Origin: Escherichia coli
GTDB lineage: Bacteria; Pseudomonadota; Gammaproteobacteria; Enterobacterales; Enterobacteriaceae
Strand: one strand, 5' to 3'
DNA length: 64,000 nt
Assembly: GCF_041248615.1 (NCBI RefSeq)
Contig: NZ_CP158426.1
Positions 12,577 through 63,560 of the stretch are shown here, in pieces. The notes beneath the pieces were generated by a model, which saw only the letters and a list, made by a program, of their open reading frames with translations, made no database searches and was not told where the DNA came from. The first letter of the stretch is position 1; each line of letters starts with the position of its first letter. The translations under genes were made by a program, and so were the position numbers.

Positions 12577-13593
12577 ATGAGTGCCCACTATTTTAATCCA
12601 CAAGAGATGATCAATAAGACAATCATCTTCGATGAAAGGCCAGCGGCGTCAGTGGCATCATCATTCCATGTTGCTTATGGCATTGATAAAAACTTTCTTT
12701 TTGGTTGTGGTGTTTCAATCACGTCAGTTTTGTTACATAACAGCGACGTGAGTTTTGTTTTCCACGTTTTTATTGATGATATCCCTGAAGCCGATATCCA
12801 GCGTTTAGCCCAATTGGCGAAAAGCTATCGTACCTGTATCCAGATCCATCTAGTAAATTGTGAACGGCTTAAGGCATTACCGACGACCAAAAATTGGTCT
12901 ATTGCCATGTATTTCCGTTTTGTAATTGCAGATTACTTTATTGATCAACAAGATAAGATCCTTTACCTGGATGCTGATATCGCCTGTCAGGGAAACTTAA
13001 AGCCGCTGATAACAATGGATCTTGCCAATAACGTTGCTGCTGTTGTTACTGAACGCGATGCTAACTGGTGGTCGTTACGGGGTCAAAGTCTGCAGTGTAA
13101 TGAACTTGAAAAGGGTTACTTTAATTCAGGTGTCCTGTTAATTAATACACTAGCGTGGGCGCAGGAGTCCGTTTCTGCTAAAGCGATGTCGATGCTTGCT
13201 GATAAAGCCATCGTTTCCCGTTTAACCTATATGGATCAAGATATCCTTAATCTTATCCTGTTAGGGAAAGTTAAATTCATTGATGCTAAATACAATACGC
13301 AATTTAGTTTAAATTATGAATTAAAAAAATCATTTGTTTGTCCAATTAATGATGAAACCGTATTAATTCATTATGTCGGCCCGACAAAACCCTGGCATTA
13401 CTGGGCCGGTTATCCAAGTGCGCAACCTTTTATCAAAGCCAAAGAAGCATCGCCCTGGAAAAATGAACCGTTAATGCGGCCAGTTAACTCAAACTATGCT
13501 CGTTATTGCGCTAAGCATAATTTTAAACAAAATAAACCAATTAACGGGATAATGAATTATATTTATTATTTTTATTTAAAGATAATAAAATGA
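12577..13593 (+). CDS. waaO: GT8-family LPS core alpha-hexosyltransferase (WaaO/WaaI-like, outer-core HexII)
   Basis: 338 aa; GT8 signatures (YLDADI DxD motif, HYVGPTKPWHYWAGYP); first gene after waaP as in R1/R4 core types. Confidence 0.7.
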   Translation: MSAHYFNPQEMINKTIIFDERPAASVASSFHVAYGIDKNFLFGCGVSITSVLLHNSDVSFVFHVFIDDIPEADIQRLAQLAKSYRTCIQIHLVNCERLKALPTTKNWSIAMYFRFVIADYFIDQQDKILYLDADIACQGNLKPLITMDLANNVAAVVTERDANWWSLRGQSLQCNELEKGYFNSGVLLINTLAWAQESVSAKAMSMLADKAIVSRLTYMDQDILNLILLGKVKFIDAKYNTQFSLNYELKKSFVCPINDETVLIHYVGPTKPWHYWAGYPSAQPFIKAKEASPWKNEPLMRPVNSNYARYCAKHNFKQNKPINGIMNYIYYFYLKIIK

Positions 13594-59431: not shown

Positions 59432-60040
59432 ATGAAACTCGTCGGTAGCTACACCAGCCCGTTTGTACGCAAACTTTCTATTCTGTTGTTAGAAAAGGGC
59501 ATAACTTTCGAATTTATTAATGAACTGCCCTATAACGCGGACAACGGCGTGGCGCAATTTAACCCGTTAGGAAAAGTGCCGGTGCTGGTGACCGAAGAGG
59601 GCGAATGCTGGTTTGATTCGCCGATCATCGCTGAATATATTGAATTAATGAATGTCGCTCCGGCGATGTTGCCGGGCGATCCGCTGGAGTCGTTGCGGGT
59701 GCGCAAAATTGAGGCACTGGCGGATGGCATTATGGATGCCGGGCTGGTATCGGTGCGTGAACAGGCGCGTCCAGCGGCGCAGCAGTCTGAAGATGAATTG
59801 TTACGCCAGCGGGAGAAAATCAACCGCAGTCTGGATGTGCTGGAAGGATATCTGGTCGATGGCACACTCAAAACCGATACGGTCAATCTGGCGACTATCG
59901 CTATTGCCTGTGCCGTCGGATATCTCAATTTCCGCCGCGTTGCGCCAGGTTGGTGTGTCGACCGCCCACACTTAGTCAAACTGGTCGAAAACCTGTTTAG
60001 CCGCGAAAGTTTTGCTCGCACCGAACCGCCAAAGGCTTGA
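59432..60040 (+). CDS. yibF: Glutathione S-transferase-like protein YibF
   Basis: 202-aa protein [28 protein letters not shown]. Confidence 0.9.
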
Positions 60041-60137: not shown

Positions 60138-61529
60138 ATGACAACCGAAACGCGTTCCCTCTATAGTCAACTTCCGGCTATTGATCGCTTATTGCGCGAT
60201 AGCTCCTTCCTTTCTTTGCGTGATACTTATGGTCACACCCGCGTGGTGGAATTGTTGCGTCAGATGCTCGACGAAGCGCGAGAAGTGATTCGTGATAGCC
60301 AGACGCTGCCCGCATGGTGTGAAAACTGGGCGCAAGAAGTCGATGCCCGACTGACGAAGGAGGCGCAGAGCGCGCTGCGTCCGGTGATCAACCTGACGGG
60401 AACCGTGCTGCATACCAATCTTGGGCGAGCTTTACAGGCAGAAGCCGCAGTGGAAGCCGTTGCGCAGGCTATGCGTTCGCCAGTGACCCTCGAGTACGAT
60501 CTGGACGACGCCGGACGCGGACATCGCGATCGTGCGCTGGCGCAGTTGCTGTGCCGTATTACGGGGGCGGAAGATGCCTGTATCGTTAATAACAATGCGG
60601 CGGCAGTGTTATTGATGTTGGCGGCCACTGCTAGCGGGAAAGAGGTGGTGGTATCTCGCGGCGAACTGGTGGAGATTGGCGGCGCGTTTCGTATTCCTGA
60701 TGTCATGCGTCAGGCAGGCTGCACCCTACACGAAGTGGGGACCACCAACCGCACGCACGCTAATGATTATCGCCAGGCGGTGAATGAAAATACCGCGCTG
60801 TTGATGAAAGTACATACCAGTAACTACAGCATTCAGGGATTCACCAAAGCGATAGATGAAGCGGAACTGGTGGCGCTCGGCAAAGAGCTGGATGTCCCCG
60901 TAGTGACTGATTTAGGCAGTGGTTCGCTGGTCGATCTTAGCCAGTTCGGTTTGCCGAAAGAGCCAATGCCGCAGGAGTTGATTGCGGCGGGTGTCAGTCT
61001 GGTGAGCTTCTCCGGCGACAAGTTGTTAGGCGGGCCGCAGGCAGGAATTATTGTTGGTAAAAAAGAGATGATCGCCCGCCTGCAAAGCCACCCGCTGAAG
61101 CGTGCATTACGCGCGGATAAAATGACCCTCGCGGCGCTGGAAGCCACGTTGCGTCTTTATTTACACCCTGAAGCTCTGAGTGAAAAATTACCGACCCTGC
61201 GCCTGCTTACCCGCAGCGCAGAGGTCATTCAAATCCAGGCACAACGTTTACAGGCTCCCCTTGCCGCACATTACGGCGCGGAGTTTGCGGTACAGGTTAT
61301 GCCATGTCTTTCGCAGATTGGCAGTGGTTCGCTGCCGGTTGATCGCCTGCCGAGCGCGGCATTAACGTTTACACCCCATGATGGACGCGGTAGCCACCTT
61401 GAGTCATTAGCCGCCCGCTGGCGTGAATTGCCAGTGCCGGTGATTGGTCGTATTTATGACGGACGATTGTGGCTGGATTTACGCTGCCTTGAAGATGAGC
61501 AACGGTTTTTGGAGATGTTGTTGAAATGA
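60138..61529 (+). CDS. selA: L-seryl-tRNA(Sec) selenium transferase
   Basis: 463-aa protein. Confidence 0.95.
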
Positions 61530-63370
61530 TTATTGCGACTGCCGGACACGTTGACCACGGCAAAACAACCTTATTGCAGGCGATTACTGGCGTAAATGCC
61601 GATCGTCTGCCGGAAGAAAAAAAGCGCGGCATGACTATCGATCTCGGTTATGCCTACTGGCCGCAGCCGGATGGCCGCGTGCCTGGTTTTATCGACGTAC
61701 CCGGTCATGAAAAGTTTCTTTCCAACATGCTGGCTGGCGTTGGTGGTATCGATCACGCGCTGTTGGTGGTGGCGTGCGATGACGGCGTGATGGCACAGAC
61801 CCGTGAGCATCTGGCGATTTTGCAGCTGACCGGTAACCCGATGCTGACAGTGGCGCTGACCAAAGCCGATCGCGTGGACGAAGCGCGTGTTAATGAGGTT
61901 GAACGCCAGGTAAAGGAGGTGCTGCGGGAATACGGTTTTGCTGAGGCAAAACTGTTTATCACCGCAGCAACCGAAGGTCGGGGAATTGATGCCCTGCGCG
62001 AGCATCTGCTTCAGTTACCAGAACGCGAACACGCCAGCCAACATAGTTTCCGCCTCGCGATCGACCGTGCATTTACCGTAAAAGGTGCCGGGCTGGTCGT
62101 CACCGGTACGGCGTTAAGCGGGGAAGTGAAGGTAGGCGATTCACTCTGGCTGACTGGTGTAAATAAACCGATGCGCGTGCGTGCGCTGCATGCACAAAAC
62201 CAGCCAACAGAAACCGCCCATGCCGGGCAGCGTATCGCGCTTAACATCGCGGGTGATGCGGAAAAAGAGCAGATTAACCGTGGCGACTGGCTGCTTGCCG
62301 ATGTGCCGCCAGAGCCGTTCACGCGGGTGATTGTCGAGCTTCAAACCCATACGCCGCTGACCCAGTGGCAGCCGCTGCATATTCACCACGCCGCCAGCCA
62401 CGTTACGGGACGCGTTTCGCTGCTGGAAGATAGCCTTGCCGAGCTGGTGTTCGACACGCCGCTGTGGCTGGCGGATAACGATCGCTTAGTGTTGCGCGAT
62501 ATCTCGGCCCGCAACACGCTGGCGGGGGCGCGTGTGGTAATGCTTAACCCGCCGCGTCGCGGTAAGCGTAAGCCGGAATATCTGCAATGGCTGGCGTCTC
62601 TTGCACGAGCGCAGAGCGATGCCGATGCGTTATCTGTTCATCTGGAACGCGGCGCGGTTAACCTTGCCGATTTCGCCTGGGCACGGCAGCTCAACGGCGA
62701 AGGGATGCGCGAACTATTGCAACAGCCTGGCTATATTCAGGCTGGTTATAGCTTGTTGAATGCGCCGGTTGCCGCCCGCTGGCAGCGGAAAATTCTCGAC
62801 ACATTAGCGACTTATCATGAGCAACATCGCGATGAACCTGGTCCTGGGCGCGAACGTCTGCGACGTATGGCGTTGCCAATGGAAGATGAAGCGCTGGTAC
62901 TGTTGCTGATTGAAAAGATGCGCGAAAGCGGCGACATCCTCAGTCATCACGGCTGGCTGCATCTGCCGGATCACAAAGCAGGCTTCAGCGAAGAGCAGCA
63001 GGCCATCTGGCAAAAAGCAGAGCCGCTGTTTGGTGACGAACCGTGGTGGGTGCGAGACCTGGCAAAAGAGACGGGAACCGACGAGCAGGCAATGCGTCTG
63101 ACGCTACGTCAGGCGGCGCAGCAGGGGATAATTACCGCGATCGTTAAAGATCGTTATTACCGTAACGATCGGATTGTCGAGTTTGCCAATATGATCCGCG
63201 ATCTCGATCAGGAATGTGGTTCAACCTGCGCGGCGGATTTCCGCGATCGCTTAGGCGTAGGCCGAAAACTGGCAATTCAAATTCTGGAATATTTTGACCG
63301 CATTGGTTTTACGCGTCGTCGGGGAAATGATCATTTACTGCGCGACGCATTATTATTTCCGGAAAAATAA
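61526..63370 (+). CDS. selB: Selenocysteine-specific elongation factor
   Basis: 614 aa; GTPase motifs [11 protein letters not shown] and [12 protein letters not shown] overlap with selA. Confidence 0.95.
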
Positions 63371-63431
63371 GGAAATGATTAATTCATAATAAATATGAAT
63401 TAATACAAAATTTCTTATTAATGTTAAGAAG

Positions 63432-63464
63432 GCACGTTATTTGATGAATGTAACGTGCTTTTTA
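63432..63464 (+). terminator. Rho-independent terminator of selAB
   Basis: gcacgttatttgatgaatgtaacgtgc hairpin followed by tttttatt. Confidence 0.75.
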
Positions 63465-63560
63465 TTAAAAATATTTTAATAAACGGTAATGTTGATCATA
63501 TTTTCAAATGAAAATCCTCAGTAAGCTGCCCGCCCTTTTTTACACTTTCAGGAGTGTGTT

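Follow-up and report, generated by a model that had tools for sequence, protein, structure and literature searches.

A conserved bipartite element between selB and yiaY of Escherichia coli: a putative protein-binding site and its haplotype-specific perfect palindrome

The AT-rich spacer between selB and yiaY in Escherichia coli carries a conserved bipartite DNA element, ATTAATTCA-N9-TGAATTAAT followed by ACAAAA, which haplotype A of E. coli shares with almost every Citrobacter. The perfect palindrome present in the 64,000-nucleotide stretch of E. coli DNA that was analysed (the window) appears to be a haplotype-specific, perfected version of this element. Our preferred reading, held tentatively and with slightly less than an even chance of being right, is that the element is a DNA site bound by protein in an H-NS-silenced region 5' of yiaY, the protein being either a member of the H-NS family or a dimeric regulator. 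We infer both that the 27-bp element is recognised by a protein and that its target gene is yiaY. Neither a prior description of the element nor a report of a protein binding it was found in the literature searched. Three things can be told apart at this locus: the half-sites that are conserved, the perfect palindrome peculiar to one haplotype, and the actual terminator of selAB.

The palindrome in the selB-yiaY spacer

The genes of the locus are arranged as follows.

59432-60040, plus strand: yibF, at the window end
60138-61529, plus strand: selA, at the window end
61526-63370, plus strand: selB, with its stop codon TAA at 63368-63370
63561, plus strand: ATG start codon of yiaY, a gene that begins near the window end

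The selB-yiaY spacer is 190 bp long with 27% G+C; its first 140 bp have 21% G+C, and the local G+C around the palindrome is 22%. The original prediction described a perfect inverted repeat with 10-bp arms, ttaattcata-ataaa-tatgaattaa, at 63379-63403, just past the selB stop and ~160 bp before yiaY. The sequence reads exactly so, and the repeat gains one further base on each side, resulting in two 11-nt arms (63378-63388 and 63394-63404) that are 100% complementary across a 5-nt gap and contain a single C-G pair (7% G+C).

63378-63404, no strand assigned: perfect palindrome ATTAATTCATA-ataaa-TATGAATTAAT, the haplotype-A form of the element

The first base of the palindrome is 8 nt past the selB stop and its last base is 157 nt ahead of the yiaY ATG, while its centre lies 170 bp 5' of this ATG and also 5' of the selAB terminator. 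The self-complementary hexamer ATTAAT occurs twice within it (63378-63383 and 63399-63404), at a distance of 21 bp, or two helical turns, and both copies constitute the most invariant core of the element, with K-12 too having both. The TAA inside the left half-site is a second in-frame stop for selB. In E. coli SCPM-O-B-8794 and Pseudocitrobacter faecalis (loci L010 and L047), the usual selB stop is absent and translation continues for four more codons to the left-arm TAA (GAT TAA); since both terminate there, the left ATTAAT doubles as a backup selB stop.

In the whole 64-kb window, a search for perfect inverted repeats with arms of 10 bp or more and loops no longer than 12 yields just five, two of which are inside the 190-bp selB-yiaY spacer. 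The other perfect 10-bp repeat of the spacer, TTTATTAAAA-ata-TTTTAATAAA at 63461-63483, has 0% G+C, is located directly 3' of the terminator T-run and is not kept in the K-12 haplotype. The probability of such a palindrome arising by chance was estimated with 5000 dinucleotide-preserving shuffles, in which a perfect arm of at least 11 with a loop of 3-12 was counted as an event. Across the whole spacer (27% G+C) this event had P = 0.0032; within the 140 AT-rich bp (21% G+C), P was 0.0074. Both values mark the repeat as locally unusual, but neither is compelling alone because a genome has thousands of spacers. Judging by the alignments described below, the stronger case against chance appears to be cross-genus conservation and not the shuffle P.

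The element is single-copy in all 1,336 E. coli genomes that carry the perfect form, and this restriction to one place per genome rules out a REP/BIME, a MITE or another mobile repeat. A sequence at 13120-13146 of the window, TTTAATTCAggtgtcctgTTAATTAAT, differs from the arm pattern by 2 mismatches; it lies inside an AT-rich waa (LPS-core) glycosyltransferase gene, where it encodes GYFNSGVLLINT. It was rejected as a second copy of the element and is probably a chance match in the coding sequence of an AT-rich gene. An imperfect palindrome, ATTAATTAAT-atttagt-ATGAATTTAT, which also has 2 mismatches to the conserved arms, was found in the xylB-yiaB spacer of E. coli E2348/69 (locus L090, 313-339). 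It is positioned 3' of the xylB terminator and 5' of yiaB, the same arrangement as at selB-yiaY, and may be either a coincidence of AT-rich sequence or another site of this type.

Haplotypes and conservation of the element

The selB-yiaY region was found in 5,425 of 5,426 complete E. coli genomes, and its identity to the window is bimodal. Haplogroup A, which carries the perfect palindrome, comprises 1,336 of the 5,426 genomes (24.6%), and haplogroup B, which includes K-12, comprises about 4,052 (74.7%). The K-12 form, ATTAATTAAGTTTTAAAATAAATTAAT, is degenerate, with the outer seven pairs intact and the inner pairs broken, and EPEC E2348/69 and strain 20.1 share the form ATTAATTAATTTTTAAAATAAATTAAT. 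Over the 122 bp of 63385-63506 the window and K-12 differ at 30 positions (25%), compared with about 3% in the genes on either side, and the two haplotypes are identical at 63371-63384 and at 63398-63410. The split does not simply follow phylogroup: ST131 has haplotype A and EPEC E2348/69 has haplotype B, and we take both to belong to phylogroup B2. This sharp two-haplotype polymorphism is the most curious aspect of the locus.

SelB was used to gather 80 loci from different species, and yiaY was then located in each of them. The two genes adjoin each other in Escherichia, Citrobacter, Pseudocitrobacter, Intestinirhabdus, Kluyvera, Pluralibacter and two Enterobacter species. Comparison with eight Citrobacter species divided the palindrome and its 3' flank into three parts.

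63378-63386, no strand assigned: left half-site ATTAATTCA, 100% identical to the eight Citrobacter species, with a mean majority fraction of 0.94 over 18 sequences
63387-63395, no strand assigned: variable 9-nt centre of fixed length, 40% identical to Citrobacter, with 0 indels among 17 sequences
63396-63410, no strand assigned: right half-site TGAATTAAT with the 3' flank ACAAAA, the arm 100% and the flank 96% identical to Citrobacter

Unassigned segments of the spacer show 36-47% identity in the same comparison, and the spacing of the half-sites is invariant among the 17 sequences. The element differs by one change in Pseudocitrobacter and by one or two changes in E. albertii and cryptic-clade Escherichia. 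On the left side nothing mirrors the conserved ACAAAA flank, and this one-sidedness implies that the element is not a purely symmetric site. With regard to conservation in orthologous regions, which had been proposed together with the original prediction as the way to examine it, the outcome is divided: the perfect 10/11-bp palindrome is confined to one E. coli haplotype (~25% of genomes), whereas the outer 9-bp half-sites, their spacing and the 6-nt 3' flank are kept in Escherichia, Citrobacter and Pseudocitrobacter. Among the selB loci compared, these three genera are the only ones in which the element (at most 3 mismatches over 18 positions) follows selB. In Enterobacter, Kluyvera and Pluralibacter yiaY lies beside selB, yet the full element is absent, and it is therefore not required for yiaY expression.

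In Escherichia sp. MOD1-EC7003, yiaY has been lost while selAB is retained with an intact terminator. The element of this strain is decayed, with 4 of the 18 arm positions changed and ACAAAA converted to GCAATT, and its SelB is 99% identical to that of the window. The decay in this single lineage appears to point the same way as the conservation of the arms, namely to a constraint on sequence that is tied to yiaY. In Citrobacter sp. Cu233, where yiaY was recently broken, the element is still there, with one change.

Altogether, yiaY was lost or broken independently three times. In E. coli ETEC1701 (L007, 1578-2303) an IS1 insertion directly after selB plus a deletion removed the gene, in MOD1-EC7003 (L009, 4345-4700) a large deletion lies within it, and in Cu233 (L015, 4535-4760) internal deletions left a 36-codon remnant. 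The gene appears to be dispensable in some lineages.

Regulators and promoter signals at yiaY

In K-12 under standard conditions, yiaY is not transcribed (PMC11741368). It is anaerobically induced in Shigella flexneri in an FNR-dependent manner (log2 3.18; PMC4229854), it is raised 5-9 fold in EPEC E2348/69 by Ler, an H-NS antagonist (PMC3891560), and an oxygen-dependent change of yiaY (0.15) was reported only in an hns stpA double mutant (Myers et al. 2013, PMC3688515 Table S11). ChIP-chip of H-NS in K-12 defined bound regions at 3755039-3757215 under anaerobic and at 3755059-3756664 under aerobic conditions (U00096.2; PMC3688515 Table S3). The element was placed on U00096.2 with the aid of the sigma-70 peaks of PMC3688515 at selA (3759284-3759316) and yibF/rhsA (3759996) plus the K-12 annotation. 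According to the converted coordinates, selB occupies 3756040-3757884, the spacer 3755851-3756039 and the palindrome position 3756006-3756032, which is covered by each of the two H-NS regions and falls close to the middle of the aerobic region. The H-NS ChIP-chip does not single out the palindrome because its resolution is 1.6-2.2 kb, and K-12, the source of the H-NS data, has the weakened form of the element. Each arm with its outer flank contains, in inverted orientation, a best match of 7/10 to the published H-NS motif tCGATAAATT (Lang et al. 2007, PMC2094087); such 7/10 matches occur at 9.4 per kb in the window and are thus not discriminating.

Based on these observations, the element would most likely be a preferred entry or anchoring site for proteins of the H-NS family (H-NS and StpA, and Ler in EPEC). 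Coating by these proteins, from the spacer into the 5' end of yiaY, would keep the gene off until anaerobic signals or anti-silencers bring relief. Alternatively, the element may be the operator of a dimeric regulator working on the same yiaY promoter. Among the candidates, experimental data at this locus speak for H-NS-family proteins alone, and the half-site pattern would suit a dimeric regulator just as well. The element is also transcribed within the selAB 3'UTR and can fold there into a hairpin, a role that we regard as secondary.

Several other regulators were considered and rejected. By-eye comparison with consensus sites showed that none of ArgR, Fur, Zur, Cra, MetR, CRP, IHF and Fis fits in orientation or spacing. 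The K-12 allele matches 12 of 15 positions of an ArcA consensus, and this serves as a lead only. An ArcA box (TGTTA-type direct repeats) was rejected: none of the supplementary tables that accompany the ArcA ChIP study lists yiaY, selB or aldB. The FNR motif TTGAT-N4-ATCAA is absent from the palindrome, and PMC3688515 gives neither an FNR peak nor a predicted FNR site at the locus. The Dan (TtdR) box GTTNATT was rejected since the arms read ATTAATT, with an A where the G is needed; the text of the Dan paper mentions neither yiaY nor selB.

Two further signals lie inside selB. An IHF ChIP-chip peak at 3756423-3756791 of U00096.2 (PMC3688515 Table S4) falls, by coordinate conversion, at about 62619-62987 of the window, which is 380-750 bp 5' of the selB stop. 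The 3' end of selB (63139-63248) contains seven GATC (Dam) sites in 110 bp, the densest cluster in the window. These seven sites match the selB-end cluster reported in PMC11741368, for which that study described dam-dependent changes in RNA polymerase and in protein occupancy, with no known binding protein.

No sigma-70 promoter was recognised between 63000 and 64000 when both strands were scanned for the consensus. Two conserved blocks were recognised nearer to yiaY.

63494-63504, plus strand: conserved block GATCATATTTT, with about 0.92 identity to Citrobacter and present also in the Enterobacter, Kluyvera and Pluralibacter spacers
63521-63530, plus strand: conserved block GTA(A/T)GCTGCC, a candidate yiaY -10 region (TAAGCT/TATGCT), conserved from Escherichia to Enterobacter and Pluralibacter

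As far as their sequence allows us to judge, these blocks probably form the promoter or an activator region of yiaY. The first of them includes a Dam site and, in the window allele, a TTGAT FNR-like half-site, and its distance of 24 bp from the candidate -10 is a poor fit to a plain sigma-70 promoter. The names yiaYp4 and yiaYp6 are presumably RegulonDB predicted-promoter labels and, taken as such, give no experimental start site. They appear in PMC5961368 solely as labels of initial transcribed sequences. The element is located at about 130-140 bp upstream of the likely yiaY promoter, which is an unusual place for a simple operator.

Competing explanations and biological meaning

The alternative that survives best, possible although on balance unlikely, is that the element acts in RNA, either as a hairpin past the stop codon in the selAB 3'UTR or as the seed of a small RNA. 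In the first form, the hairpin would serve protection or processing of the message, e.g., as a barrier to 3' exonucleases or as an RNase E substrate. In the second form, a 3'UTR-derived small RNA would consist of the single-stranded seed AUUAAUACAAAA followed by the terminator hairpin. Two structures besides the palindrome itself are relevant to this possibility.

63366-63419, plus strand: extended predicted hairpin in the selAB 3'UTR, with the outer stem AAUAAGGAA/UUUCUUAUU, enclosing the selB stop and the palindrome, in Escherichia only
63427-63463, plus strand: selAB intrinsic terminator, in which the G+C core stem GCACGUUA/UAACGUGC encloses a loop of about 11 nt and is followed by a T-run at 63459-63463 (-16.4 kcal/mol, z = -5.5)

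Folding predictions are in part consistent with a role in RNA. The 111-nt 3' end, comprising the palindrome, the outer stem and the terminator, folds strongly (-31.6 kcal/mol, z = -7.5), the palindrome of the window allele is predicted to fold with -6.2 kcal/mol (25 nt) or -7.2 kcal/mol (27 nt), and the outer 7 pairs are predicted at a probability of 0.74-1.0 in all 12 species or alleles folded singly. Pairing survives a C-G to U-A change in C. amalonaticus and an A-U to G-C change in strain SCPM, Pseudocitrobacter and C. sedlakii maintain it through U-G wobbles, and the outer stem of Escherichia still pairs in E. albertii, in which one G-C pair is replaced by U-A; the outer stem is not predicted in Citrobacter. 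Small RNAs derived from 3'UTRs usually have a conserved block directly 5' of a conserved terminator, and the element and the selAB terminator are arranged in this manner. Moreover, the one-sided ACAAAA flank suits a strand-specific RNA element better than a symmetric operator.

Nevertheless, the palindrome helix is absent from the RNAalifold consensus of 13 3'UTRs, where the terminator stem is the sole helix, with compensatory changes at 3 of its 11 pairs. Between the haplotypes, the terminator stem changes from CACGTTA/TAACGTG to CACATTG/CAATGTG by two compensatory changes. In the palindrome, 85.6% of the cells in a pair count over 17 sequences are paired, but the outer 7 pairs never covary, the inner two fail to pair in 7 and 9 of the 17 sequences, and double changes occur at 3 of the 11 pairs, in six cells, each limited to a few sequences. 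Since the outer arm pairs are invariant while the neighbouring terminator stem covaries, the constraint reads as one on sequence and not on pairing. The palindrome has at most one G-C pair, and the lone stem is marginal or absent in the majority haplotype (0.0 kcal/mol in K-12 and -1.8 kcal/mol in strain 20.1). The decay of the element in MOD1-EC7003, where yiaY was lost but selAB was kept, also argues against a function in the selAB message. A search of Rfam 15 returned chance-level matches only (E of at least 0.86, all far below the gathering scores), and a literature search for an sRNA from the selB 3'UTR found nothing. We conclude that the hairpin can form, and that the constraint looks like one on sequence.

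The palindrome was ruled out as an intrinsic terminator: besides its low G+C pairing, its stem is followed by ACAAAATTTC with no T-run, the T5 at 63459-63463 belonging to the next hairpin, and the terminator scan was blank there. The true selAB terminator is this next hairpin, at 63427-63463, which a simple terminator scan missed because its loop is longer than the limit of the scan. Of the two roles originally suggested for the palindrome, that of a second hairpin before the selAB terminator holds only to the extent that a hairpin is predicted in the transcript, given that it is not a terminator and is missing from the consensus fold. The other role, a regulator site for yiaY, is better supported than the hairpin by the arms, which are conserved in sequence without covariation, by the decay in MOD1-EC7003 and by the H-NS ChIP-chip, although the binding protein is one that we infer.

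A bolder and clearly unlikely reading is that ATTAATTCA-N9-TGAATTAAT-ACAAAA is the specific site of a new regulator that links the Fe-dependent dehydrogenase YiaY to the selenoprotein operon upstream, with the two haplotypes as a maintained polymorphism. The candidate regulator might bind DNA, as an anti-silencer or a repressor, or it might act in the selAB 3'UTR as an RNA-binding protein or an sRNA module. If this were true, the E. coli haplotypes would represent a strong site versus a weak site, that is, a maintained regulatory polymorphism.

Less probable still, and hardly likely in our view, is the absence of any selected function, whereby an accidental palindrome would have arisen in an AT-rich, H-NS-coated spacer and its conservation would reflect low-complexity composition, the backup stop (GAT TAA) and slow local divergence. 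AT-richness does ease the formation of palindromes, as the second perfect 10-bp repeat only 60 nt away (63461-63483) illustrates; comparable imperfect AT-rich palindromes occur elsewhere, and a P of 0.003-0.007 per spacer is expected to be reached a few times per genome. In addition, 75% of E. coli genomes, K-12 included, carry a degraded version with no obvious harm, and the in-frame TAA of the left arm is actually used in Pseudocitrobacter and E. coli SCPM. However, all 24 arm and flank positions are essentially identical between genera as opposed to 36-47% identity around them, the spacing is fixed with zero indels, both arms are conserved and not just the one with the backup stop, and the arm flanks are unchanged within a segment that is 25% divergent between the haplotypes.

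The proposal that a small protein explains the conservation, namely a Citrobacter ORF of 16 codons that runs through the palindrome (MKQLIQELNELIQNRY), is very improbable and was rejected: 8 of 10 Citrobacter sequences keep it open and its TAATG overlap is an arrangement typical of translational coupling, but it is interrupted by an in-frame TAG in Citrobacter wls619 and has ACG at the start in Cu233, it is absent in E. coli, which has AGG for ATG plus an in-frame TGA and keeps the arms nonetheless, its centre alters amino acids freely (QKSN, QRLN, HGLN, HIKH), and the arms are equally invariant at all three codon positions. This ORF and its variants were observed at the Citrobacter loci L013, L014, L018-L020, L025 and L026, where the start overlaps the selB stop.

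Returning to the protein-binding reading, the closest functional parallels of the element are H-NS nucleation sites and two-turn operators. The element resembles H-NS nucleation sites (PMC2094087) in its 22% G+C, in its location inside a K-12 H-NS region beside a gene that behaves as H-NS/StpA-silenced and Ler-inducible, and in the AATT steps and the 7/10 motif match of both arms. However, the similarity to the motif is weak and of a kind seen often (9.4 per kb), and a strict inverted repeat with 21-bp phasing and cross-genus conservation has not been described for H-NS sites. The operators of dimeric or tetrameric factors share with it the conserved half-sites, a spacer that is variable yet of fixed length, cores two helical turns apart, and a single copy beside the regulated gene. 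It differs from them in its position at about -130 to -140, upstream of a terminator, in its asymmetric conserved flank, and in showing no match to the sites compared (FNR, ArcA and Dan by published data; ArgR, Fur, CRP, Cra and MetR by eye). Structured 3'UTR elements and 3'UTR-derived sRNAs are similar in their location between stop codon and terminator, in their predicted fold and in the A/U-rich block 5' of the terminator, but the stem here is nearly all A-U, with minimal covariation, and is absent from the consensus fold. With a Rho-independent terminator the palindrome has in common an inverted repeat in a 3'UTR, but it has at most one G-C pair and no T-run after the stem. The element qualifies neither as a terminator, a repetitive element or a member of an Rfam family nor as an FNR, ArcA or Dan site.

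The element is most likely a modest, ordinary kind of regulatory element, a putative binding site that helps to control yiaY. The scope of the finding is a local regulatory detail that leaves general principles unchanged. Within this scope, yiaY is a poorly understood gene, normally silent and anaerobically induced, and the element gives a handle on the silencing protein and its relief. The within-species divergence of 25% over about 120 bp could offer a natural test of regulatory variation.
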